DNA of 16,404 nt, taken from Anaerolineales bacterium. Its GTDB lineage: Bacteria > Chloroflexota > Anaerolineae > Anaerolineales > JABWBV01. The first letter of the stretch is position 1; every line of letters starts with the position of its first letter. Location of the stretch: positions 1 to 16,404 of the forward strand of contig JABWBV010000082.1 of assembly GCA_013359445.1 (NCBI GenBank), written 5' to 3'. Positions 2,180 through 16,404 of the stretch are shown here, piece after piece. The position numbers were made by a program, and so were the translations under genes. The notes under the pieces were generated by a model. It did not search any database and was not told where the DNA came from. It worked only from the letters and a program-made list of their open reading frames with translations.

Positions 2180-4192
2180 ATGCTCTACCTTCCCCTCCTT
2201 TTTCACTTTAACCAACACCTCAGCGAAATGGCCGCCCTCGCCAGTCAGGTATGCTACCGCGGCTTGTTACGCACCCTACGTGCCAACCCCCACACCAAAG
2301 CTAACCTACACATCTCCGGCACCCTGCTCACCGCCCTCAAATGGCTGGACCCCGAACCATTGGAACTGATCCGAGATGGATTGGCCGATGGACAATTTGA
2401 ACTCGTTGGCAGTACCTTTGCCCAAAACATCCCCTACGCCACCGACGATTGGGACAACGCCCATCAGATCGAACTGCACCGCCAGGTGCTGGAAGACACC
2501 TTCGGCGTCTCCCCCACCGCTTTTTGGAACGCCGAACGCTGTTGGCGACAATCCCTGGCCCCAATCATTGCCGCCGCAGGATACCGCACCATCACCCTCG
2601 AAGACCACATTCTGGAAGCGAGCGGAGGAAACGCCGCCCACATTTACCAAACCCGCGCGGGAGACCACACCCTCCAAATCGTGCGCGACGACGAAAAGCT
2701 CAAACACCTCTTCAACTTCGCCGCCTGGTTTGGCGATCACGAACCCATCCTCACCTACCTGACTGAGTGCCGCCCCCCCGTTGGCGAGGGTGTCCTGGCC
2801 TACGCCGAAGACGCCGAAGCGATGGGACTGTGGGGATATTTTCAAGGCGTCATCCCCCATCAAACCTGGGATCGACTAGATGCCCTGCTCAAAACCCTCG
2901 CGACCCGCCAAGACGCACGCCCCATCCTTTTTTCCGAAATCCCCGTCCCCTCACAAGAAATCACCCCCCTCGCCGATGGCGCCGCCACTTGGATGAACGC
3001 CTCCCTCACCCAACCCGGGCGCCCCTACCACGAAGACGGCTTCAAAGACTGGTTCGACTTCAACACCCACTCCCCCAAACTAGAAAAGTTTCGCCAATTT
3101 TTCACTGAAATCCGCCGCGAGCTTCAAGCCGCAGAAAAACAAACCGCCCAAATCGGCGCAAAAAAAATCTATCAACTCGCCCTCCACTGCTTCCTCACCC
3201 ACCAATACGAATTTGGGTGCATCGGCATTGGGGGGGATCAATTCCGGGGCTGGATGGGAGCCAAAGCCGCGCGGGTTCTTGCCTCATCCGTGTACATCGC
3301 CACTCTGGCCAAACGAAGCGGGGAGTCCCTCCAATTCACCATCGTGGACGACCTGAGCAAAGATGGCATCCGCGAATGGATGCACTTCCACGAAACCCAA
3401 CTGCTGATGGCCAGCCCCGTAGGGGGCCGTTTGTTATACTGGCTCAACCTGAAAAACGGACAAATGCTCGTTGGCAACCCCTCTGCCGTCGTCCGAGGCC
3501 CCTACCAAAACCACGCCGATCCGCCCCAGACTGTCGGCTACCCCAATTTTTGGCTTCCCGACGAAACGCCCTACACCCCCTACGATCAAACCGAACTGCC
3601 CCCCACCCGCCTCGAAAAATTTCTCCCGGAATGGGTATGGGAAGAGAACCCCGCCCCGGTCACCCTTGCCGTCCGCGAGATGCGCCAAGCCGGGGAACAA
3701 CACACCCTCCTGGCCCAACAAGGCGCGTTCTGCGATGAAATCTGGCTAGATGGCGAACAAGTCTTTACACGCACCACCCACATGAATGCCCAGGGTGCAC
3801 AGGAAGCCATTCGGTTTTACAAATCATTGGCCCCGTCAATCGGCTTTCGCAAAAAATACATTCTCACCCCCCATACAACCACGGTGACCTATACCTTTAC
3901 CAACACCAGTCCCCACCCCCACGCGATCCGCATGACCACCACCAGCGAACTCGCCCTGGACTACGCCGCCCTCCTGCAACACGGACGCGCCGCCCTGGAA
4001 TTTCTCCCCGACCAACCGGGGGTGGTGAACCCGCTCACAGGCGAAACCCTGGTTCTGATCTCCAAACGCCCAACGCAAGAAATCATCCGCACCCCGGCAC
4101 TTTTAGGGTTAATTGTCGGGTTGGGGTTCGAGTTTACCGTGCAACCTCATGAACCCATAAAATTTTCTATTCAGCTTGTTCGCACCCCCTAA
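2180..4192 (+). CDS. Glycoside hydrolase family 57-like protein (alpha-glucan-active enzyme family); atypical N-terminal motif
   Basis: A 670-aa ORF. The N-terminal LLFHFNQHL resembles the GH57 HxHQP region, and ELVGSTFAQNIPY resembles GH57 region II. WNAERCW matches the GH57 nucleophile motif W-x-x-E-R-x-W. AEDAEAMG resembles the acid/base region. No clear Shine-Dalgarno is present. Confidence 0.55.
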   Translation: MLYLPLLFHFNQHLSEMAALASQVCYRGLLRTLRANPHTKANLHISGTLLTALKWLDPEPLELIRDGLADGQFELVGSTFAQNIPYATDDWDNAHQIELHRQVLEDTFGVSPTAFWNAERCWRQSLAPIIAAAGYRTITLEDHILEASGGNAAHIYQTRAGDHTLQIVRDDEKLKHLFNFAAWFGDHEPILTYLTECRPPVGEGVLAYAEDAEAMGLWGYFQGVIPHQTWDRLDALLKTLATRQDARPILFSEIPVPSQEITPLADGAATWMNASLTQPGRPYHEDGFKDWFDFNTHSPKLEKFRQFFTEIRRELQAAEKQTAQIGAKKIYQLALHCFLTHQYEFGCIGIGGDQFRGWMGAKAARVLASSVYIATLAKRSGESLQFTIVDDLSKDGIREWMHFHETQLLMASPVGGRLLYWLNLKNGQMLVGNPSAVVRGPYQNHADPPQTVGYPNFWLPDETPYTPYDQTELPPTRLEKFLPEWVWEENPAPVTLAVREMRQAGEQHTLLAQQGAFCDEIWLDGEQVFTRTTHMNAQGAQEAIRFYKSLAPSIGFRKKYILTPHTTTVTYTFTNTSPHPHAIRMTTTSELALDYAALLQHGRAALEFLPDQPGVVNPLTGETLVLISKRPTQEIIRTPALLGLIVGLGFEFTVQPHEPIKFSIQLVRTP

Positions 4193-7043: not shown

Positions 7044-9047
7044 TTATTTGACCAAAAGCGGCAGGAATACTTGCAGGACGTATTCAAACGCCCCGATATC
7101 ACAGTTGCCCACGCGAGGATAGCCGCGCTGATCCACCTCGTTGACCACAGTGCCCGGATCACAATAGTAGCTATCGCCCGTGTCTACCGCCGCGCTGGTC
7201 GCGTCAAGCGCCCACGTCCACGTCGGGCCACCGTTGTTTTGCACCGCGCCGACTAATCCGGCGGGCGTACTGGGTTGGTCGCCTGCCGCGTTCAGGTTGC
7301 AGTCACTCCCTTCGGAGAGGTTGTGGCCGAGCGAGATCAGGTCGACCAGTGAGACGGTAGTGCAGGTGGCAAATGGGTGAGCGCCAAAAAGCGTGTTGAC
7401 CATCCAGACTTTGCCCAGGTTGTAGAGGGCACTGCCTTGCATCCCGTTTGCCTGATTAAGGGCGAGGGTGGTGTTGGTTGTGGTGACCAGTCCGGTGGCG
7501 GCAATGTACACGCCACCCCCAAGATCGGTGGCCATGTTTTCGGCCAGGGTGGAATTGATAAAATGCAGGCTATTATCTGTCCACAAGGCCCCCCCATCAT
7601 TTCCCGACGTGTTTAAGTGGAAAAGCGTGCCACGAATGAGGTTTTCATTGTTGGGAGATGAATTGCTCTTTTGGTAAATGGCTCCGCCGCTATCGCCCGC
7701 CGAATTTTCAGAAAAAGTTGAATCTTGCAATTGCAAGCGATAGTTGTGGATGTACGCGCCGCCACCAAAGCCTTCTGCCGTGTTGTGATGGAGACGCAAA
7801 CGTGTGCCTGTAAAAAATTGCGTGTACACCGCCCCGCCATCCAGTGCAGTGTTATCCAAAAAGGTCACATCGGTTCCCTCGAACCAGGTTAAAGCATACG
7901 CCGCTCCACCTTCCGTGGCTTGATTGCTTTGGTAGGTGCCCCCCTGCTGTTCGAGATAGGACACCGCCACCGCCCCGCCATGATCCCCCGCGGAATTGAG
8001 AGAAAAATTGGTTTCCACCAGGGAGAGCGTCCCCGAGCCTTGTGCGTAAATCCCCCCACCATCCGATCCGGCTGTGTTTTCCGAAAAAGTGGTCGCTATC
8101 ACAGTCAGGGCATCTGTCGTGAACGCATCGAAAGAATGCAAACCGCCCCCGCTTCCCGTCGTGGCTTCATTGACTTCGATCAAAGAATGGGAAATCGTAA
8201 TAGTTGCCGTTTGAGCAATCAGGCCTCCGCCGTCGCCGGCCGCCGTGTTGAGGGAAATCGTACTTGAATAGATTTCCGTCACCCCGCCTGCGATCCCGAT
8301 GCCCCCCCCACTGCCTGGGGTTGAATTGGCACGGACGAGTGCATTATTCAATTTTAGATAAGCCTCTGGCCCGGTGCTATAAATGCCACCTACGACTTCC
8401 ACCCCCTCATTCAATACCACCTGGGTGCCATCCAAAATCGCGCGCCCACCTAAACCACTAAAATTGAGGTTGTACAAGCCACCCCCGTACCCCGCGGTGC
8501 CATTGCGAAGCTCGCCGCCGTACATGGTAAAGGCCCCATCCTGATTGAGAACGATGCCCCCCACCGGCCCCGCGGCAAGGGTCACATCGCCATTGATCAG
8601 CGCCAAACCCGTTATTTCCACGGTCGCGTCGATCAGGTGCAGAACCCGATCGAGAAGCGCGGCATCAATGGTGGCGGTTCCGTTCTCTGCAACGACAAAT
8701 TGCACGTCGAGTTCCGCCGAATTATCGACAATATCCAAATCACCGGTGGCGGAGGCATCTTCGTCCATTCCAGCCAATGCCAGGGTGTAGGTTTCCCCGT
8801 TTGCAAGGGTGATCACGTCCGTTTCGGTGTCACTTCCGGCGGGGCACTCGCCCAGCACAATGCCGGAGACGGTGTTCGTGTTGGCAGAGATGATGGCTTC
8901 GCGCAACGAACAAACGCCATCTATCCCGCTCACCACATCCACAGCAGTGGTTACGGTGAGGGCGGCGGCTCGGACGGGACGCGCTAGCAATGCCCCGAGC
9001 GCCATAACAGCCAGCAACGATGAAAGTGCAAAACGTTTGAACAACAT
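7044..9047 (-). CDS. Secreted right-handed parallel beta-helix (Pmp-like repeat) protein with N-terminal CSLREA domain and C-terminal choice-of-anchor Q domain
   Basis: A 667-aa ORF with an AAGGAG Shine-Dalgarno 8 nt upstream of the ATG at 9047. The signal peptide is MLFKRFALSSLLAVMALGALLARPVRAAA. The literal CSLREAI motif is present. Many GGG(I/L/V)Y/GGA(I/V/L) beta-helix repeats follow. The C-terminus DQRGYPRVGNCDIGAFE matches the choice-of-anchor Q signature. Confidence 0.85.
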   Translation of the reverse strand: MLFKRFALSSLLAVMALGALLARPVRAAALTVTTAVDVVSGIDGVCSLREAIISANTNTVSGIVLGECPAGSDTETDVITLANGETYTLALAGMDEDASATGDLDIVDNSAELDVQFVVAENGTATIDAALLDRVLHLIDATVEITGLALINGDVTLAAGPVGGIVLNQDGAFTMYGGELRNGTAGYGGGLYNLNFSGLGGRAILDGTQVVLNEGVEVVGGIYSTGPEAYLKLNNALVRANSTPGSGGGIGIAGGVTEIYSSTISLNTAAGDGGGLIAQTATITISHSLIEVNEATTGSGGGLHSFDAFTTDALTVIATTFSENTAGSDGGGIYAQGSGTLSLVETNFSLNSAGDHGGAVAVSYLEQQGGTYQSNQATEGGAAYALTWFEGTDVTFLDNTALDGGAVYTQFFTGTRLRLHHNTAEGFGGGAYIHNYRLQLQDSTFSENSAGDSGGAIYQKSNSSPNNENLIRGTLFHLNTSGNDGGALWTDNSLHFINSTLAENMATDLGGGVYIAATGLVTTTNTTLALNQANGMQGSALYNLGKVWMVNTLFGAHPFATCTTVSLVDLISLGHNLSEGSDCNLNAAGDQPSTPAGLVGAVQNNGGPTWTWALDATSAAVDTGDSYYCDPGTVVNEVDQRGYPRVGNCDIGAFEYVLQVFLPLLVK

Positions 9048-9105
9048 AAAAACAAACTCCTTATGATCAGTTTTTAGGAATTACTCACCAAGAGAGGAAA
9101 TTTCA

Positions 9106-9151
9106 GAAAAAGGATGTCAGGGGAATGCACATCTCCCCTGACATCCTTTTT
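9106..9151. terminator. Perfect 14-bp palindromic hairpin (H1) flanked by an A-run and a T-run; bidirectional terminator-like, immediately 3' of small gene A
   Basis: AAAA (9107-9110), then AGGATGTCAGGGGA (9111-9124), loop ATGCACATC, then TCCCCTGACATCCT (9134-9147), then TTTT (9148-9151). It abuts the stop codon of the small gene at 9151-9153 and lies upstream of the 9047 start of the beta-helix gene. Confidence 0.65.
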
Positions 9152-9381
9152 CAAGGTTTACCCCTCTGTGCGGGAGTAATTACGTTAATTTTTTCCGTCT
9201 CTTCTGAGCCGGACGTTTGTTGATGCAAAAACAAAAATAACCGTTCCAGGTCTTCAAAATGCCATTCTTCCCCGGTCAAGACGTGGCGCGCCGTGGCCCG
9301 CCAGGGTGCGTCTTCCGCGGAACGCCACAAGCGGACGAGATAGGATTGATACATGGAGGAAGAAAGATTTCTTTCGGACAT
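9151..9381 (-). CDS. Small Trp/charged-rich conserved hypothetical protein, paralog A (76 aa)
   Basis: The start is ATG 9381 (MSERNLSSSMYQSYLVRLWR...) with a GGGAG Shine-Dalgarno 6 nt upstream; the track's start at 9393 is 4 codons longer. A paralog lies at 13282-13473 with the identical core EEWHFEDLERLFLFLH. That 16-aa identical block carries 7 synonymous and 0 nonsynonymous nucleotide differences, indicating purifying selection on this frame. The opposite-strand ORF 9259..9474 is not conserved in copy B. Confidence 0.7.
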   Translation of the reverse strand: MSERNLSSSMYQSYLVRLWRSAEDAPWRATARHVLTGEEWHFEDLERLFLFLHQQTSGSEETEKINVITPAQRGKP

Positions 9382-9385
9382 GGAG
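9205..9385. repeat. Copy A of an approximately 180-bp duplicated segment (direct repeat, about 75-80% identity, ungapped) carrying the small-protein gene
   Basis: It aligns without gaps to 13300-13480 at a constant offset of 4095 bp. For example, tgcaaaaacaaaaa[t/c]aaccg[t/c]tcca... and gcggacgagataggattgata occur in both copies. Confidence 0.7.
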
Positions 9386-9490
9386 ACTCCCATCTTACAA
9401 AATCCCCGTCACAAAAACGTAGCAAGCCCCCGCGCGTCCGCCTTCCCCGCCCGTTTCGAGAAGGAGCAGGGTAGTACTTGCGCGCTAGTT

Positions 9491-9502: not shown

Positions 9503-10021
9503 ATGAAAAAAACCATTTCTACCGAACCCACTCCAGAAAATATTCAGCACATTCTGCACATCCTTGCGGAAGTTCCAGCACACCTGGACAGACTCCGGCA
9601 AGGCATGGACGAACAGACTCTGAGAGAACCGCTGGCCCCGGACGAACGATCCTTCCATCAAATTCTAGCCCACCTCATCCACTGTGAAGCCCGCACCTTT
9701 GAAACGATCACCCTGGCCCTGCTCACTCATGAACCAGTCCTTTTCCCCATTCACCCGGAACGCGATTTCGGAAAGTTGTTCCCCTTCGAGCACCAACCCT
9801 TCTCCGATTTACTCGCCTACTTCAAACTCCGCCGCGCGGTGCTGTTGCCCGTGCTCAGTGGGCTGAACGAGAAAAAGTGGGCACGCGTGGTCCAGCAAGC
9901 AGGCAAACAACGGAAGGAGTCGGTGTACTGGCAAGCGCGCGTCCTCGCCCTGCACGAATGGGAACACGTGGAAGAGATCACCAAAAAGTTAGGGAGCGCC
10001 CCGTCCGTACTGAATCGGTAG
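9503..10021 (+). CDS. DinB/YfiT-like (DinB_2 superfamily) putative metal-dependent four-helix-bundle protein
   Basis: The start is placed at ATG 9503 (MKKTISTEP...); the longer track ORF from 9353 would overlap small gene A and lacks support. His-rich motifs are HQILAHLIHCE and the C-terminal LHEWEH (HxxxH), typical of the DinB_2 His triad. The protein is 172 aa. Confidence 0.65.
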   Translation: MKKTISTEPTPENIQHILHILAEVPAHLDRLRQGMDEQTLREPLAPDERSFHQILAHLIHCEARTFETITLALLTHEPVLFPIHPERDFGKLFPFEHQPFSDLLAYFKLRRAVLLPVLSGLNEKKWARVVQQAGKQRKESVYWQARVLALHEWEHVEEITKKLGSAPSVLNR

Positions 10022-10055
10022 CCTGCTTGCGTCCTGCGCCCCCGTTTGTACCGGG

Positions 10056-10061
10056 TACAAT
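10056..10061 (+). promoter_or_regulatory. -10-like hexamer TACAAT 6 nt upstream of the regulator ATG; possible leaderless start
   Basis: TACAAT at 10056-10061 is followed by AACCTC and the ATG at 10068. No Shine-Dalgarno is present. This is the same geometry as the DinB-like gene. Confidence 0.25.
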
Positions 10062-10067
10062 AACCTC

Positions 10068-13000
10068 ATGCCTGCCCCGCGCCTCGCGCTCACCCTCTTC
10101 GGGCCGTTTGAAGCCCTGGTCAACGCCCAGCCCCTCGCTTTTGCCACCGATAAAATCCGTGCGCTCCTCGCCTACCTCGCCCTCGAACCGGACAAACCCC
10201 ACCGCCGCGAAACCCTCGCCGCCCTGCTCTGGCCCGATTATCCCGACGAGACCGCGCTCCGCAACCTGCGCCAATCGGTGTACCGGCTCCGCCAAACGCT
10301 GGCCGACGCCGATCCCGACCTGCCCGCCCGCCTGATCACCCAAACCCGCCCAACCATCACTCTGCACGCCGCCGCGCTGACCACGGACACCGCCCGGTTT
10401 ACCGCCCTCGTGCAGGAGAGCCAAATTGCGCCTGATCCGCGCCCCCCTTTGACCGAATTGACCGCTCTCTACCGGGGCGAACTGCTGAAAGGGTTCGCCT
10501 TGTCCGACGCCTACGCCTTCGACGAATGGTTGAGCATCCAGCGCGAAATTTTCCACCAGCAAACGCTCGACGCCTTCACTCGGCTGATGTCGCGTCAGGA
10601 AAACGACCCCGACGCCCTGCTAACCACCGCGCCGCGCCTGCTGGCCCTGGCCCCCTGGCACGAAGAAACCCACCGCCAGATCATGCGCGCCCACTTGCAA
10701 AAAGGCAACCGCACGCAAGCCCTTGCCCAATACCAGACTCTCCGCACGACCCTGCTCCGCGACCTGGGCGTAGAACCCGCCCCCGCTACCACAGCCCTGC
10801 TCGCCCGCATTCAAACCGAAGCGCCTTACCCCGAAAACGCTCAAACCGCACCCATTCCCCCCCGCCCGACCCTGCGGAACTTCCCCGCGCCGCTCACCCC
10901 CCTCATCGGACGCAAAGCCGAACTGGACGCGCTCACTCAGATGCTGTCCGACCCCGCTTGCCGTCTGGTCACGCTGATCGGGCCGGGCGGGATGGGGAAA
11001 ACGCGTCTCGCGACCGAAACCGCGCGCCGCCTGTCGGCCCAGCCTCATCGGTTCACGGATGGGTTGTACTTCGTGCCGCTCACCCAACTCGAACAGGGGG
11101 AGTTGCTCCTCGCCACGGTGGCGCAAAACCTGGGCCTTACGCTTTCCGCCACCGCCGAGCCTCGCCGAGAACTCTTCCAGTATCTGCAAAGCCACCCCTC
11201 CCTGCTTCTCCTCGACAATTTTGAGCATCTCCTGCCCGACGCCGCGCCCATGCTGAGTGAACTTCTCGCCGCCGCGCCGGAGACCACGCTGTTGGTGACC
11301 TCCCGCGACCCGCTTGCCATTCAGGGCGAGTGGCTTTATCCGCTCGAAGGGCTGTCTTATCTTCCCGACCCGCGTGAAACTGACGCCCCGCTCGAACGCC
11401 CCGCCCCGCAACTGTTCATCCAAACTGCCCGCCGATACCGCCCGTCATTCGATCCCCCGGCCCACGCGGAATCCATCCTGGCGATCTGCCGCCTGACCGA
11501 TGGCTTGCCCCTTGCCCTCGAAATGGCCGCCGCGTGGATGCGCGCGTATTCCACCCAAGAAATCGCCGAACGCATTACCCAAAGCCTAGATTTTCTCACC
11601 AACCCCTATCGGGACGCGCCCGCCCGACAACGGAGCCTGCGCGCGATTTTCACTTCGACGTGGGAACAGCTCGCGCCGGAACCCCGCGCGGTGCTCGCCG
11701 CCCTGTCGGTGTTCCGGGGCGGGTTCACCGTCGCCGCCGCGTTAAACGTCGCCCAGGCTGGGGTTCTCGATCTGGCCGTGCTGGTCGAAAAATCCTTCCT
11801 GCGCCGCGCTGAACACCGTTACGATTTGCATGAACTGGTGCGCCAGTTTGCCGCCGAAAAACTAGGGGAGATGGGCCACGCGCCGGTGATTTTTGCCCGC
11901 CATGCGAACTTTTATCTCGCCACCCTGGCCCAACAAGCCCCTGGCTTGAACGGGCCATCCCCGCAGGAGGCGTTGTCGGCAATGCGCCAGGAGTTGGACA
12001 ATGTGCGCCACGCGTGGGCCTGGGCGGTCGCGAGGGCGGAGGTGCGGTTGCTCGAAATGGGACTGGAGGGGTTGGTACAGTTTTTTATGTTGACAGGGAA
12101 CCTTGCGGAGGGGGAAAACGCGGTCAAAAAGGCCCGCGCCGCTGTGTCGGCCCTGCCCGCGGCCCCCACGCCACTTCAAAGTCAGTTAGAGAGTTCGCTG
12201 GCGTGGTTCCGCGTGGGGTTGGGGAATCATCTGGCCGCGTTAGAAAATATTCAGGCCGCGCTGTCCCTTGCGGGGCAACATCTCCCCAGCCGCGCCCGTG
12301 CCCTTTCGATTTACGGGTGGGCGTTGCAAACAACCGGGAAGTATGCCGAAGCGGAAACGGCGTTGGAAGAGGCGATTACCCTGTTTGACCAAATGGGCGA
12401 TCTGTTTCAAAAATCTTTTGCGCTGATTCGCCTGGGTGGGGTTTATTGGCGGAGGCGGGATTTTGAGAAGACGCGGATGTATTATCAACGCTCGTTGCAA
12501 ATCGAACAAACGCTGGGAAACAAGCGAGGGATGACGCGCGCGTTCGGCGGGCTGGGGTTGGTGTATTTAAATCTGGAAAAATACCCGGAGGCGCTGGAAG
12601 GGTTGGGGCGGGCGCTGGAATTGGATCGGGAATTGGGAAATCTGGCAGGGGTGTCGCGCCATTTGGGGAACATTGGCGCGGCGCACTTGATTTTGGGTCA
12701 GTTTGAGCAGGCGCGGGCGTGTTTTGAGGAGGCGGCGGAAATGGATGCCCGGGCGGGGAATAAAGTGACGCTGGGCATTTGGAAGGAGAACCTGGGGATG
12801 GTGTTTATGCATCTCCAGCAGACGGATAAGGCGCGGCAGTGTTTTGATGCGTCCATTGGGTTGTTTCGAGAGGCGGGCAATCGGTTTAACTTGCCGGAGC
12901 CGCTGTTGGGCAAGGCGGATTTGCTGTTGGCGCGGGAGGAAGATGATGAAGCAAAAACGCTGATCGAGGAGGGGGTGCGCCTTTCGGACGAACTCAACCG

Positions 13001-13274
13001 CAAGGATACGCAGACCCGTGGGCGGCTGTTGCTCGCTCGTTGGCTCGCCCGGACCGATCCTGCCACCGCCCGCCAACAGTTGGAGACGATGCTGGCCGCC
13101 CTCGGTGATTTGCCCGCCGAGGAGACCCGCGCGCAGATTTATTTCGAACTCTGGCGCACGGATGGGCGCGAGGAGGATGCGGGGCGCGCGTTGGACCTGT
13201 ATCGGCGATGTTTGGGGAGGGCGCAGAAGTTTGAGTATCGGGTGAGGGTGGAGGCGTTGGAGCGTAAAACGTAG
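10068..13274 (+). CDS. AfsR/SARP-family large transcriptional regulator: OmpR-type winged-helix DNA-binding domain + BTAD, NB-ARC/STAND P-loop NTPase, C-terminal TPR repeats
   Basis: A 1068-aa ORF. The N-terminus LTLFGPFEALVNAQPL...KIRALLAYLAL is SARP-like. The BTAD region reads YRGELLKGF...DEWL...RLLALAPWHEETHRQIMRAHLQKGNRTQALAQYQTLRTTLLRDLGVEP. Walker A is LIGPGGMGKTRLA and Walker B is LLLLDNFEHLL. TPR-like repeats run through the C-terminal 450 aa. Confidence 0.9.
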   Translation: MPAPRLALTLFGPFEALVNAQPLAFATDKIRALLAYLALEPDKPHRRETLAALLWPDYPDETALRNLRQSVYRLRQTLADADPDLPARLITQTRPTITLHAAALTTDTARFTALVQESQIAPDPRPPLTELTALYRGELLKGFALSDAYAFDEWLSIQREIFHQQTLDAFTRLMSRQENDPDALLTTAPRLLALAPWHEETHRQIMRAHLQKGNRTQALAQYQTLRTTLLRDLGVEPAPATTALLARIQTEAPYPENAQTAPIPPRPTLRNFPAPLTPLIGRKAELDALTQMLSDPACRLVTLIGPGGMGKTRLATETARRLSAQPHRFTDGLYFVPLTQLEQGELLLATVAQNLGLTLSATAEPRRELFQYLQSHPSLLLLDNFEHLLPDAAPMLSELLAAAPETTLLVTSRDPLAIQGEWLYPLEGLSYLPDPRETDAPLERPAPQLFIQTARRYRPSFDPPAHAESILAICRLTDGLPLALEMAAAWMRAYSTQEIAERITQSLDFLTNPYRDAPARQRSLRAIFTSTWEQLAPEPRAVLAALSVFRGGFTVAAALNVAQAGVLDLAVLVEKSFLRRAEHRYDLHELVRQFAAEKLGEMGHAPVIFARHANFYLATLAQQAPGLNGPSPQEALSAMRQELDNVRHAWAWAVARAEVRLLEMGLEGLVQFFMLTGNLAEGENAVKKARAAVSALPAAPTPLQSQLESSLAWFRVGLGNHLAALENIQAALSLAGQHLPSRARALSIYGWALQTTGKYAEAETALEEAITLFDQMGDLFQKSFALIRLGGVYWRRRDFEKTRMYYQRSLQIEQTLGNKRGMTRAFGGLGLVYLNLEKYPEALEGLGRALELDRELGNLAGVSRHLGNIGAAHLILGQFEQARACFEEAAEMDARAGNKVTLGIWKENLGMVFMHLQQTDKARQCFDASIGLFREAGNRFNLPEPLLGKADLLLAREEDDEAKTLIEEGVRLSDELNRKDTQTRGRLLLARWLARTDPATARQQLETMLAALGDLPAEETRAQIYFELWRTDGREEDAGRALDLYRRCLGRAQKFEYRVRVEALERKT

Positions 13275-13281
13275 AACCAGA

Positions 13282-13473
13282 TCAAGAATCCCCCCTCTCC
13301 TTTCCCCCCGTCCGCTCGTGCAAAAACAAAAACAACCGCTCCAAATCTTCAAAATGCCACTCCTCCCCGGTCAGCACGTGCCGGACTGTCGCCCGCCAGC
13401 ACACTTCTTCTGAAGGACGCCAAAGGCGGACGAGATAGGATTGATAGGTGGAGGAAGCGTGGAGAGGGGACAA
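13282..13473 (-). CDS. Small Trp/charged-rich conserved hypothetical protein, paralog B (63 aa; apparent TTG start)
   Basis: (L/M)SPLHASSTYQSYLVRLWRPSEEVCWRATVRHVLTGEEWHFEDLERLFLFLHERTGGKERGDS. It has no in-frame ATG. The TTG at 13473 has AAAGG 7 nt upstream, and the frame is open upstream only to 13552 with no other start codon. Its stop lies 7 bp from the regulator stop on the opposite strand. Confidence 0.55.
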   Translation of the reverse strand: MSPLHASSTYQSYLVRLWRPSEEVCWRATVRHVLTGEEWHFEDLERLFLFLHERTGGKERGDS

Positions 13474-13480
13474 GAAAAAA
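13300..13480. repeat. Copy B of the approximately 180-bp duplicated segment carrying the small-protein gene
   Basis: Ungapped alignment to 9205-9385 at a 4095-bp offset, in the same orientation. Confidence 0.7.
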
Positions 13481-13500
13481 CCTTTACTTGCGAGTCGTTC

Positions 13501-13579
13501 CGGGAGCGAAATCCCTGAAACGGGCCATAAACGCCATCTGCGGGGGGCTGTTCATGTCGTCGTCTCAGGGATTTCTCCC
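13501..13579 (-). promoter_or_regulatory. Long-range stem structure in the 5' region of small gene B / 3' region of the FG-GAP gene
   Basis: CGGGA (13501-13505) and GAAATCCCTGA (13508-13518) pair with TCAGGGATTTC (13564-13574) and TCCCG (13575-13579). That is 16 bp with a 2-nt bulge, enclosing a 45-nt GC-rich loop. Confidence 0.4.
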
Positions 13580-13618
13580 GATGGTCGAAATGACGGATGG
13601 GAGAAGATGGGGGCTGAT

Positions 13619-13660
13619 GGACACGGAAAACCGAATGGTCAATCCGAGTCTTCCGTGTCC
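13619..13660 (-). promoter_or_regulatory. Perfect 10-bp stem-loop (GGACACGGAA / TTCCGTGTCC, 22-nt loop) downstream of the FG-GAP gene stop
   Basis: Seen directly in the sequence. There is no adjacent U-tract on either strand, so it is not a canonical intrinsic terminator. It could be a rho-dependent or attenuator structure, or part of a structured RNA. Confidence 0.4.
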
Positions 13661-13687
13661 ATCTGAGTTCGAGTCTGCTTTTCTGGC

Positions 13688-15427
13688 CTACCGCCCTAAT
13701 GCCCAACCAAACCGGTCATTCATCTCGGAGTCATCGGGAATGTCTGTCGATTCCTGATACCAGATTTGATTATCCACGGCGGTTAACCCGCTCCCCGATC
13801 CATATATGACATGGAGCGCCCCCGCGTCTGTCTCCGTGACCGCGTTCACCAAAACATCCTCATACGGAGCGCCCACCACCAGGTCGGTGAACCCATCCCC
13901 GTTGTAATCTCCGGCGGTCAAGGTGTAGCCGAACAAATCGTCCACTTCCGGCGCCCCCGTCACCAGGCCTTGCGCCCAAAGGTCTTGTCCGTCCGTGGAG
14001 AGCGTGGAGCCATTGCTATACAGCACCTGCACAAATCCCTGGTTCAACTGATCCCCATCCTGGAAGGGCACACCCACCGCCAGATCATCCACCCCATCAC
14101 CGTTGAAGTCGGCGGCGATCAACGCCTGTCCAAGTCGGTCCAGCGTCTCTGGCGCCCCCAAAATCCCGTCCAACCCCTGATAAAGAATCATATCGTTCGC
14201 GCCGGACAGCCCTCCTCCAATCGCCGAGCCGAACAACACATGCACGGCCCCCGCGTCGGTTTCATCGCCCACGCCATTATTCACATCCTCACCGGGCACA
14301 CCCACCACGAGGTCACCGGCACCGTTTCCATCAAAATCGCCCGCGGCCAACACCGTGCCGAAGCTATCATGATCTTCCGGGTTCCCTTGCACGCTATTTT
14401 CACCCTGTCGCCAGGCCGTTTCGCCCAAGAGCGAGATACCCGCGTCACTGCCCTGGAACACCATCACCGCCCCGACATTATCCACCCCCAATATGTCGTA
14501 ACCGGGAATGCCCACCGCCAGATCATCGAACCCATCGCCATCGAAATCTTCCGAAGCTAGGGCCGCCCCGAAATAATCGCCACTCGCCGGTTCCAAATCT
14601 ACCGATTCCAACCCGTGGTGGAAAATGATGTCGTCCAAGGCTTGCAAACCATCCGCCGAGCCATAAATGACATTCACCGCGCCCATCTCGGTAATCCCGT
14701 CCGATTCCAGGTCTTCTTTGGACGAACCCACCGCCAAATCCGCGAATCCGTCCCCGTTGAAGTCGCCGCTGATGAGCGCTTCCCCAAACCGGTCGCCCTC
14801 CTCCGCAAGGCCTCCAATCCCGTTCAAACTCTGACCGAAGGATTGTGTCCCGTTGTCGGTCAAACCCGTGCCCGGATACCCATAAATGACATCCACCTGC
14901 CCGACGTTGGTCATTCCATCCCGCCCCTCGCCAGGGGAACTGACCGCCAGATCGCTGGTCCCGTCCCCGTTAAAGTCACCTATCGCGAGGGCGAACCCAA
15001 ACTGCTCGTCCGGCAGGCTGACCCCAAGGATATTTTCCTGCGTCCAGAACTGATTGTTCTCCGCGTTCAGGCCATCTGCCGTGCCGTACAGGATTTGAAT
15101 TGCACCATTATCCGCCACCAACCCGTTGCGGTCTTCGGTCGGAATCCCGATGGCGAGATCGGCGTACCCGTCCCCGTTGAAGTCCACCAACCCGTTCGGG
15201 TCAGCGGGCGAACAGTCCAGCGTCCCCCCGCCAATCGAAGCAGGGCTGTCGCTGGAAATCGGGTTCCCGGCTCGTATAACAAGCGGCAGGTAAACCTGAT
15301 AACAGGTCGTCCCCCCCGCTACTGCAGGAGCAGGAGCCGCAAATGATCTCCCGTTCATGACAAAGGCTATCGCGATGAACAGGAAGAGGCTGATAATTTT
15401 TATACCGTTGAAAATTTTGTTTACCAT
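13688..15427 (-). CDS. Secreted FG-GAP repeat (integrin-alpha-like beta-propeller) protein
   Basis: The start is ATG 15427 (MVNKIFNGIKIISLFLFIAIAFVMNGRSFA|AP signal peptide) with an AGGAGA Shine-Dalgarno 7 nt upstream; the track start at 15481 lacks an SD. At least 7 FG-GAP repeats are present, e.g. DFNGDGYADLAIG, GDFNGDGTSDLAV, GDFNGDGFADLAVG, EDFDGDGFDDLAVG, GDFDGNGAGDLVVG, ADFNGDGVDDLAVG and GDYNGDGFTDLVVG. Confidence 0.85.
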   Translation of the reverse strand: MVNKIFNGIKIISLFLFIAIAFVMNGRSFAAPAPAVAGGTTCYQVYLPLVIRAGNPISSDSPASIGGGTLDCSPADPNGLVDFNGDGYADLAIGIPTEDRNGLVADNGAIQILYGTADGLNAENNQFWTQENILGVSLPDEQFGFALAIGDFNGDGTSDLAVSSPGEGRDGMTNVGQVDVIYGYPGTGLTDNGTQSFGQSLNGIGGLAEEGDRFGEALISGDFNGDGFADLAVGSSKEDLESDGITEMGAVNVIYGSADGLQALDDIIFHHGLESVDLEPASGDYFGAALASEDFDGDGFDDLAVGIPGYDILGVDNVGAVMVFQGSDAGISLLGETAWRQGENSVQGNPEDHDSFGTVLAAGDFDGNGAGDLVVGVPGEDVNNGVGDETDAGAVHVLFGSAIGGGLSGANDMILYQGLDGILGAPETLDRLGQALIAADFNGDGVDDLAVGVPFQDGDQLNQGFVQVLYSNGSTLSTDGQDLWAQGLVTGAPEVDDLFGYTLTAGDYNGDGFTDLVVGAPYEDVLVNAVTETDAGALHVIYGSGSGLTAVDNQIWYQESTDIPDDSEMNDRFGWALGR

Positions 15428-15474
15428 GATGATTTCTCCTAAAAAAATGATGGATTGTTGTCGTAGCGCGGGGA

Positions 15475-15665
15475 CCTTCATCCCCCGGCGAGCTGAATCA
15501 GCACAGGAAGACCGCCAGCACCACGCGTGCCTCCCATTCCAGCCCCGCCCGGCGATAATGTCGCCAGGCTACAACACGATGCCCGTTCAAACGGGCTTTT
15601 CCAGCCGGATTCATCCGGCGTCGTTGGTAGCCGGGGGATTTATCCCCCGGCGAGCCAAATGAGCC
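15475..15665. promoter_or_regulatory. Intergenic region (globin-to-FG-GAP) with a thrice-repeated motif TCATCC(CCC)GGCG and embedded palindromes; candidate operator/promoter region
   Basis: R1 TCATCCCCCGGCGAGCTGAATCAGC (15478-15502) and R2 TTATCCCCCGGCGAGCCAAATGAGC (15640-15664) match at 21 of 25 positions. A partial third copy TTCATCCGGCG lies inside the palindrome CCGGATTCATCCGG (15606-15619). R2 overlaps the palindrome CCGGGGGAT-TT-ATCCCCCGG (15634-15653). Confidence 0.4.
15581..15600 (+). terminator. Small terminator-like hairpin with U-tract on the plus strand (GCCCG-TTCAAA-CGGGC-TTTT)
   Basis: A 5-bp GC stem followed by TTTT, oriented for a plus-strand transcript. No convincing plus-strand gene lies upstream, so its function is uncertain. 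Confidence 0.25.
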
Positions 15666-15672
15666 ATGCTTT

Positions 15673-16086
15673 TTACGCGGGCTGATACGCCGCTTCTTGC
15701 ATCAACCCGCTCAACAACGCAAACGCGTTTTCCCACGCGGATTCCACTTCGGGCGTGTACGCCGCGCCCAGGCCTTTTTCCAGCGTCCACAACAACGCCG
15801 CGCCGACGGTGGCGTAATGTTCGGGGCGCACGCCGTACCCCGCGTGGCGTTGGCCCAGGCTTTGCACGGCGGGGATGATCCGTTCGGGGTTGTCCAACCC
15901 GATCACGACCAGTTTGAGGGCGGACATCAGTTTTTCGCCCTGGGTTTTCAAATCCGCTTTGAACAACGGGCGCAGGTTGGGGTCCAGTTCAAACAGCCGT
16001 CCGTAAAACAGCGAGGCCGCGGTGTCCGCAATGGGTTCCACCTGGGCAAAAGATTGTTGGAGGGTGAGAATTTCTTGTGTGTTCAT
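15673..16086 (-). CDS. Single-domain bacterial hemoglobin (3/3 globin, Vitreoscilla Hb / flavohemoglobin N-domain-like)
   Basis: A 137-aa ORF with an AAGGAG Shine-Dalgarno 5 nt upstream of the ATG at 16086. FYGRLFELDPNLRPLF, IIPAVQSLGQRHAGYGVRPEHYATVGAALLWTL and ESAWENAF align with the VHb/Hmp globin fold, including the proximal His in the HAGYGV context. Confidence 0.85.
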   Translation of the reverse strand: MNTQEILTLQQSFAQVEPIADTAASLFYGRLFELDPNLRPLFKADLKTQGEKLMSALKLVVIGLDNPERIIPAVQSLGQRHAGYGVRPEHYATVGAALLWTLEKGLGAAYTPEVESAWENAFALLSGLMQEAAYQPA

Positions 16087-16265
16087 TTTTAGCTCCTTTT
16101 GATTTCACCGAAAGCCCTACGACGCTTTTCGTTGTAGCATCCTGAGCGGAGGCTTTGCGAAGTCGAAGGATGCGGTGTCATTCATTTCAATTTCCCCATC
16201 TTACGCCCCCACCGTCAGCGCCTCGTCGCGGGAACGTAGGCGGAAAGACAAAAAAACCTCGCTTT

Positions 16266-16404
16266 TTCAAATGGATTAGTACCCAGGTTCGTAGTGCCGC
16301 ACCCCAGTGCGGTCCGGCACTGACGTGCCTCACTACAAACTGGATATTTCAGATGGCGTTGCACCCAGGTTCGTAGTCCCGCACGCCAGTGCGGTCCGGC
16401 ACTG
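16266..16404. repeat. Two copies of an 82-bp-period tandem repeat with nested palindromes, truncated by the window end
   Basis: 16281-16322 and 16363-16404 match at 40 of 42 bp (ACCCAGGTTCGTAGT[G/C]CCGCAC[C/G]CCAGTGCGGTCCGGCACTG). Weaker similarity extends upstream (TTCA[A/G]ATGG...). Nested inverted repeats are GTGCCG...CGGCAC and CCGCAC...GTGCGG. Confidence 0.6.

Follow-up and report, generated by a model that had tools for sequence, protein, structure and literature searches.

Why would a single bacterial reading frame reverse its choice of synonymous codons partway along its length? The question is raised by a 16,404-nt contig (JABWBV010000082.1) of an Anaerolineales (Chloroflexota) metagenome-assembled genome, hereafter the window, which encodes a regulator that we call REG1 (protein NUM44723.1). 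The first-pass annotation, made from the letters of the window, had claimed an abrupt change from C-ending to G-ending codons at the junction of the NB-ARC and tetratricopeptide repeat (TPR) parts of this gene, and had offered two readings of the resulting mosaic: acquisition of the TPR sensor module by recombination from a differently biased source, or an unusual local mutational regime. The mosaic itself stands; a foreign source of the TPR part finds little support in this gene, and a local mutational regime, the alternative, agrees better with the comparative evidence. We tentatively favor the hypothesis that a persistent local strand-composition bias acted on the gene in place and was possibly driven by antisense transcription. 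The gene and its compositional parts are listed here, where G3 and C3 denote G and C at third codon positions and ORF an open reading frame.

10068 to 13274, plus strand: REG1, a SARP-type STAND regulator gene of 1068 aa, from the ORF list and Pfam matches to Trans_reg_C, BTAD, NB-ARC and TPR_12/TPR_1.
10068 to 11948, plus strand: the N part of REG1, with genome-typical codon usage (C-ending NNY and four-fold codons, A-ending Glu/Gln/Lys).
11943 to 12033, plus strand: the compositional switch interval from the breakpoint scan, aa ~626-655, where the TPR arm begins (ELDNVRHAWAW motif).
11949 to 13274, plus strand: the TPR part of REG1, whose synonymous usage is the mirror image (four-fold and Glu/Gln/Lys codons ending in G, NNY codons in T, TTG for Leu).
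12993 to 13142, plus strand: a short stretch in which C3 is back to about the level of G3 (G3 0.40, C3 0.38).

REG1 has the winged helix and BTAD domain, the NB-ARC P-loop and the TPR arm of a SARP/AfsR-type STAND regulator. At the N-terminus, Pfam recognizes Trans_reg_C with 29.9 bits (aa 27-89; cut-off 26.2) and BTAD with an E of 1.9e-19 (aa 107-248); in the center lies NB-ARC at aa 283-384 (E 1.5e-11), overlapped by AAA_22, AAA_16 and NACHT, and the Walker A motif GPGGMGKT is present in the translation. The C-terminal arm matches TPR_12 (E 6.7e-28), TPR_1, TPR_2 and TPR_8, best within aa 824-894, and weakly TPR_16 from aa 716 onward; the TPR matches fall in the frame of 11949-13274. There are about 30 full-length orthologs, at 49-57% identity.

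The switch from C-ending to G-ending codons at the NB-ARC/TPR junction is borne out by tests restricted to synonymous changes. We profiled G3 and C3 in 50-codon windows along REG1 and used S4, the G/C skew at four-fold sites, as the main measure. The GC skew of the plus strand is -0.19 to -0.30 over 10001-11750, turns to +0.10 to +0.37 over 11751-13250 and is about -0.3 again by 13751, and within REG1 the G3/C3 values shift from about 0.25/0.50 to about 0.55/0.13. Four-fold boxes have G/C counts of 132/216 in the N part and 134/62 in the TPR part (Fisher p 8e-12; Mantel-Haenszel chi2 42.8, p 6e-11). The best breakpoint lies at nt 11943-12033 on a flat-topped scan, with a chi2 of 42 against a maximum of 15.6 in 200 synonymous-codon shuffles. 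Other codon families move as well: NNC/NNT two-fold codons go from 70/31 to 20/51 (p 1e-7), GAG, CAG and AAG against their A-ending forms from 23/59 to 49/31 (p 3e-5), and TTG against CTN from 11/92 to 27/36 (p 3e-6), TTG being the main Leu codon of the TPR part.

The N part (S4 -0.24, C/(C+T) 0.69, G/(G+A) 0.28) falls on all three measures inside the range of the genes to its left, which are Band_7/flotillin, GH57 and DinB on the plus strand and genes for an 894-aa GEVED protein and a PMP-repeat protein on the minus strand, and its summed log-likelihood ratio is -80.5 toward the left-gene codon model. The same measures in the TPR part are +0.37, 0.28 and 0.61. Four-fold sites of the TPR part have exchanged C for G while A and T remain rare, so along the G/C axis the switch amounts to a mirror image, for which T and G are the fall-backs at two-fold sites. 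Codon positions 1 and 2 of REG1 also move from C to G, but this shift is common to all orthologs and thus reflects protein composition. No discrete motif was found among the words enriched strand-specifically, which are G-runs only (GGAG, GAGG, TGGG). The composition of the TPR segment is atypical for the host genome and its boundary is sharp. The short C3-rich island that had been seen at about 13030-13150 is likewise recovered, at 12993-13142, after which G3 climbs up to the stop. The description of the minus-strand genes as C-ending was wrong for the FG-GAP (13688-15481) and globin (15673-16086) genes to the right of REG1, in which G3 equals or exceeds C3.

Several lines of evidence indicate that the switch is not an artefact of amino-acid or TPR composition. 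A context model trained on the left-hand genes, with codon family and next base as inputs, expects an S4 of -0.31 for the TPR part, where +0.37 is observed; amino acids, codon families and the next base do not account for the shift. AfsR/SARP-family STAND regulators (BTAD, NB-ARC and TPR) share the architecture of REG1, yet 58 paralogous SARP/NB-ARC/TPR genes from metagenome contigs lack the switch: their N-to-TPR change in S4 has a mean of 0.00, a standard deviation (sd) of 0.10 and a maximum of +0.16, and their changes in two-fold usage are similarly small. The changes in REG1 (+0.61, -0.41 and +0.33) lie 4.5 to 6 sd from these paralogs. Together with the loci L004-L006, the paralogs rule out a generic TPR or family effect. 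The mosaic within REG1 is real and sharp: the G3/C3 values do change across the junction, and neither repeat nor amino-acid composition accounts for it.

An assembly chimera is ruled out by an independent Logan contig that is identical over 5809 nt across the junction, and three related loci from other samples (L016, L009 and L015) also switch. An overlapping antisense gene was considered and rejected, as the minus-strand phase with shared third positions holds no long ORF across the region; in the whole window, 122 aa is the maximum for an ORF of that phase, and an antisense ORF of 261 aa is an ordinary shadow frame. An Rfam scan found no family match in the window, L009 or L015.

Is the TPR part foreign? 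Import of a TPR module by domain shuffling is not supported for REG1. Separate trees of the NB-ARC side and the TPR part, a check that the first-pass annotation had proposed, were built by neighbor joining on distances with 200 bootstraps, and they place the window near the paralogous regulator P0013 in both cases. In the N-part tree the window groups with (P0033, P0034) and P0013 at 90% support, and in the TPR-part tree it stays with P0013 and the basal clade at 78% support; only the TPR of L009/L015 jumps outside the family. The divergence of the window TPR fits the prediction from the N part (regression residual -0.05, sd 0.09). A HMMER search of 1.84 billion representative proteins found nothing nearer to the window TPR than family orthologs at 50-51% identity, and plasmid and phage DNA searches gave no match. 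S4 exceeds 0.35 in only 5 of 366 ORFs from all the related loci compared, three of them in the L009/L015 block. From these sequence comparisons, the window TPR segment appears to lack both the phylogenetic disagreement and the donor that horizontal acquisition predicts.

The sister lineage, represented by L009 (GCA_020634875.1) and L015, separates composition from homology. It is syntenic with the window on the left, and the synteny between the window and L009 ends downstream of the regulator gene. Here the switch is stronger: S4 is -0.58 before codon 500 and +0.61 after it, a later split point brings the second value to +0.68, and third-position skew climbs to +0.9 in individual windows. Identity between the window and sister-lineage regulators is 70% in the N part and 26-33% in the TPR part; against L009 the amino-acid identity of REG1 falls from 0.56-0.8 to 0.15-0.38 at aa ~628-648. 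The L009 switch, at about codon 490-510, lies some 130 codons ahead of this homology collapse at aa ~630, and aa 501-560 of the L009 regulator are still 80% identical to the window protein. Because the L009 switch falls inside a region conserved with the window, the compositional domain is not the swapped module. The sister-lineage TPR itself is very divergent and was possibly replaced.

In L009 the G-type polarity runs on through lspA, a gene of 313 aa and an AraC gene, whose G+C is 0.46 to 0.63; two homologs of the 313-aa gene, each from another genome, lack the G-type usage (S4 -0.16 and -0.01). The bias is also persistent. About 0.3 of four-fold sites differ between L009 and L015, yet S4 is +0.68 in both, and between the window and the sister lineage silent sites are nearly saturated, syntenic neighbor genes differing at 0.47-0.61 of their four-fold sites.

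Two genes of the sister-lineage block have features of their own. The 313-aa gene (L009 14161-15102; L015 7468-8475, L099 8001-9005, L100 8001-8975) encodes W/G-rich proteins of 313-334 aa with no Pfam match. Its homologs in databases number over 8000, at 72-82% identity and spread over Chloroflexota classes; the gene often adjoins a SnoaL-like gene and has a G+C of 0.63-0.65 in L099/L100, above that of its neighbors. The lspA genes (L009 13595-14116 vs L015 6950-7471) share 75% protein identity and differ at 0.61 of four-fold sites, whereas their neighbors are 88-93% identical, and in L015 a PemK toxin gene is inserted just upstream of lspA.

A closer relative of the window, L016 (WBZL01001925), is 93.5% identical over DinB and the regulator and has the same codon switch. 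Synteny between the two stops exactly at the REG1 stop codon, and there is no synteny break at the internal compositional boundary. Amino-acid changes in the TPR part, polarised between the window and L016, comprise 4 toward G/T and 7 toward C/A, too few events to be read as a trend. In the same comparison GH57 (window 2180-4186, L016 4249-6261) has 70% DNA identity between flanking genes at 92-95%, which points to replacement of the GH57 allele from a divergent lineage, and the PMP-repeat gene (window 7044-9047), present in the window and L009, is absent from L016. Directly downstream of the L016 regulator is an ORF of 213 aa (13765-14406) with the motifs YHVYNRGNN and LLPNHFHFL and no Pfam match; these motifs recall REP-associated tyrosine transposases, and we take the ORF to be transposase-like. 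A short tandemly repeated stretch (15029-15343) follows it.

Does the bias extend beyond REG1? The full flip is lineage-specific. Other orthologs show a weaker N-to-TPR shift of S4 in the same direction, +0.13 to +0.34, which is at or beyond the maximum of the 58 paralogs (+0.16). In the window and L009 lineages the sense strand of ordinary genes is C-rich and G-poor on either DNA strand. Co-directional spacers of the window and L009 (~1.4 kb, transcription assumed) have sense-strand counts of 292 G vs 397 C (p 7e-5), and in genomes that lack codon skew the spacer skew is close to 0. The co-directional spacers thus share the bias, more weakly, which suggests that it follows the direction of transcription and not codon choice alone.

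Within-gene skew was compared over ~60 kb of the window and sister-lineage genomes. Four-fold G/C is heterogeneous (p<0.01) in 10 of the 21 long ORFs at these loci, vs 2% of 164 ORFs elsewhere. The skew rises toward the 3' end in GH57, the 894-aa gene and YibE and falls in Band7 and PMP. Local skew on disjoint codons is correlated between the window and the sister lineage (r +0.52 overall, +0.40 without the regulator gene), and less strongly so when the comparison is confined to four-fold sites. In the YibE_F genes (L097 5958-7148; L009 20659-21849) the four-fold skew runs from -0.44 to +0.56 and from -0.67 to +0.18, gradients that rival the regulator switch in size.

How could a bias of this kind have been inverted in half a gene? 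Under the hypothesis that we tentatively favor, REG1 would have descended vertically as a whole, its TPR half not having been imported, and its 3' half would lie in a small chromosomal domain where the force on G versus C at silent sites has long had the opposite sign. The bias may be caused by transcription; in that case the most likely mechanism would be net transcription that runs antisense over the 3' half of REG1. Such transcription may enter from a 63-aa ORF, a candidate antisense source into the TPR part, or from the FG-GAP/globin unit, with no terminator between, and would end near the NB-ARC/TPR junction. The relevant flanking features are these.

13282 to 13473, minus strand: a small ORF of 63 aa, from the ORF list and its translation, convergent with REG1, its stop 8 nt past the REG1 stop.
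13688 to 15481, minus strand: an FG-GAP repeat protein gene (Pfam), convergent with REG1 and mildly G-ending in its own direction (S4 +0.29).
15673 to 16086, minus strand: a globin gene (Pfam).
9151 to 9393, minus strand: a small ORF of 80 aa, divergent upstream of DinB/REG1, a paralog of the 63-aa ORF.
9224 to 9362 and 13319 to 13457, no strand assigned: the two copies of a 139-nt direct repeat, 81% identical and 4095 nt apart from start to start, which bracket DinB and REG1.

Each copy of the repeat falls in one of the small minus-strand ORFs (80 aa and 63 aa), which have the common motif YQSYLVRLWR...WRAT.RHVLTGEEWHFEDLERLFLFLH. No terminator-like site was found within 11400-13800. A homolog of the small ORF lies upstream of the regulator in L009, L015 and L016, and Pfam has no match for the L016 homolog or for an overlapping ORF of 111 aa (13371-13706). 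An inverted repeat at 9091-9167 (34-nt arms, 79% complementary, 9-nt loop) sits just upstream of the PMP start and overlaps the 3' end of the 80-aa ORF.

A number of observations weigh against a local bias driven by antisense transcription. A promoter/terminator scan found no convincing promoter at the right boundary and no terminator at the left one. Transcription-linked bias in its textbook form enriches the sense strand in G and T through deamination of non-template C; the bias of ordinary genes here is opposite in sign, and T does not increase at four-fold sites. The G-type usage of the FG-GAP gene, read in its own direction, is not accounted for by simple read-through. L016 has no downstream small ORF yet shows the same flip, perhaps because this variant is too recent for its composition to have changed. 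The boundary is very sharp and falls at a domain junction, as a recombination junction would. Finally, within the ~60 kb compared, the genes do not support a universal polarity from 5' to 3', and the within-gene correlation between lineages, taken at four-fold sites only, is marginal without the regulator gene. We regard as possible, although more doubtful than a local bias at REG1, the broader proposition that some Anaerolineales genomes contain kilobase-scale domains with a stable inversion of transcription-direction-linked bias, for which prevailing antisense or convergent transcription could be one cause, and that part of a gene thereby acquires mirror-image codon usage at its silent sites and retains it across genus-level divergence.

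The strongest of the alternatives, less probable than a local bias but to be taken seriously, is a recombination mosaic. Here the 3' half of REG1, with or without downstream DNA, would have been exchanged through homologous recombination, with the conserved NB-ARC/TPR linker as its anchor; the donor could be a relative with a G/T-ending copy, such as a leading-strand ortholog in a strongly replication-biased genome, or a mobile element. The sharp boundary lies at the domain junction where sister-lineage identity collapses, and the locus is visibly recombinogenic, as seen in GH57 (70% vs 92-95% in its flanks), in the presence or absence of PMP, in the end of synteny at the stop codon and in the 139-nt repeat. 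The sister-lineage TPR, which shares only 26-33% identity with the other family members and which the tree sets outside the family, and the block downstream of it, which looks like a variable accessory island (PemK toxin, AraC, variable content), also favor exchange, and some related Chloroflexota (L005, L006, L007) do have strand-dependent G/T-type genes. However, the window TPR is phylogenetically congruent with the N part, and no donor candidate exceeds 51% identity. At least two independent events would be needed in sister lineages, from donors as rare as the 5 of 366 ORFs noted above, and in the sister lineage the compositional and homology boundaries are ~130 codons apart. A mosaic also leaves unexplained the weaker shift in the same direction in other orthologs, and no decay of the bias is visible across the L009-L015 divergence.

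Two narrower sources involve the right-hand flank and a second regulator. In L097 a copy of the FG-GAP gene (94% amino-acid identity to that of the window, with the same bias) and a globin gene (100% amino-acid identity) are followed by a paralogous regulator, REG2 (= P0013), which has no strong switch, and by YibE. The window contig ends 318 nt beyond the globin start (16087-16404) and, judging from this gene order, probably runs into REG2, which would give a genome in which two regulators share a strand ~3 kb from each other. Over the stretch aligned to REG1 12993-13142, REG2 is strongly C-ending, but gene conversion from REG2 as the source of the C3-richer stretch is ruled out, as there is no patch of raised identity. 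The idea that the TPR part, FG-GAP and globin form one foreign block was also rejected: FG-GAP and globin are syntenic with REG2 in L097 with the same bias, and FG-GAP favors A-ending Glu/Lys, unlike the TPR part.

Selection on translation is improbable. It would hold the TPR half in non-preferred G/T-ending codons that slow or limit translation, for the sake of solenoid folding or a low level of the regulator. The flip is indeed mainly synonymous, with little extra change in amino-acid composition, its size scales with host codon bias (sister lineage above window above other orthologs), and in the window it begins at the domain boundary. In the sister lineage, however, it begins upstream of the TPR arm, where the protein is most conserved, and extends over three unrelated genes downstream. 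Moreover, the rarest codons (CTA, TTA, GGT, GCT, ACT) are not enriched, four-fold sites show C-to-G swaps only, and nothing similar is seen in the 58 paralogs of the same architecture.

A replication-related switch, in which an origin, a terminus or a recent inversion locally exchanges leading and lagging strands, is less probable again. Cumulative GC skew does have a V-shaped minimum at ~11750 in the window and ~11550 in L009, and codon usage clearly differs between replication strands in some relatives, L005 and L007 among them. Against this, the skew is negative again within 1.3 kb, and C-type usage is found in ordinary genes of either strand, which ties the main bias to the direction of the gene rather than to the DNA strand. 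Furthermore, an inversion leaves the coding-strand composition of a gene unchanged, and an inversion of part of a gene cannot keep the reading frame. Least probable is an artefact of chimeric assembly or of amino-acid/TPR composition, a suspicion invited by a contig from a metagenome-assembled genome and a gene in a multi-copy family, and contradicted by the independent contigs, the stratified tests, the context model and the paralogs alike.

Among the gene contexts compared, a globin gene stands divergently upstream of the regulator in three orthologous cases (L013 9257-9679, L097 1983-2396, L098 9306-9722), an arrangement which suggests that globin and regulator may be functionally paired. 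In L098, arrays of small peptide genes (Frankia_peptide matches) are present on both sides, and by our reading these resemble precursors of modified peptides.

How does the REG1 switch compare with known systems? Under the Lawrence-Ochman amelioration model, transferred or mosaic genes reportedly show atypical codon usage that decays toward that of the host. REG1 resembles such genes in its abrupt intragenic synonymous change at a domain junction and in its position at a locus with recombination scars. It differs from them in having no tree incongruence or donor, in being a mirror image on the G/C axis rather than a shift in G+C, and in that the switch recurs in the sister lineage at another position and without a sign of decay. 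Strand-specific codon usage is known from leading vs lagging strand genes of strongly skewed bacteria and from the reversed-strand ND6 gene of animal mitochondria. The likeness to REG1 lies in mirror third-position usage, G/T-rich vs C/A-rich, under opposite strand pressures; in those systems, however, whole genes differ by strand, whereas in REG1 two halves of one frame differ and the neighbors on both strands are C-type.

Fungal genes are C-biased at their 5' ends and G-biased at their 3' ends, at four-fold sites and in UTRs (PMC3315797). REG1 shares with this GC skew a coding strand that is C-biased 5' and G-biased 3', and the likeness extends to four-fold sites and to non-coding, presumably transcribed DNA. 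Because the fungal type of bias reaches non-coding transcribed DNA, it is not the product of selection on protein or translation. The fungal skew is nevertheless gradual, a genome-wide average and tied to RNA polymerase II, whereas that of REG1 is bacterial, step-like, very large and confined to some genes.

Atypical codon usage is routinely taken as a sign of horizontal transfer or domain shuffling, and the REG1 switch fails the phylogenetic and donor tests of such an origin. If a local strand bias can indeed invert silent sites within a gene, composition-based detectors of islands and chimeras would give false positives in genomes of this kind. Silent-site composition could then record long-term sense versus antisense transcription, and bacteria would join fungi in having a GC skew that depends on position in the transcript. 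If recombination is instead the cause, the locus would still be a clear example of turnover of the sensor arm in a STAND regulator.

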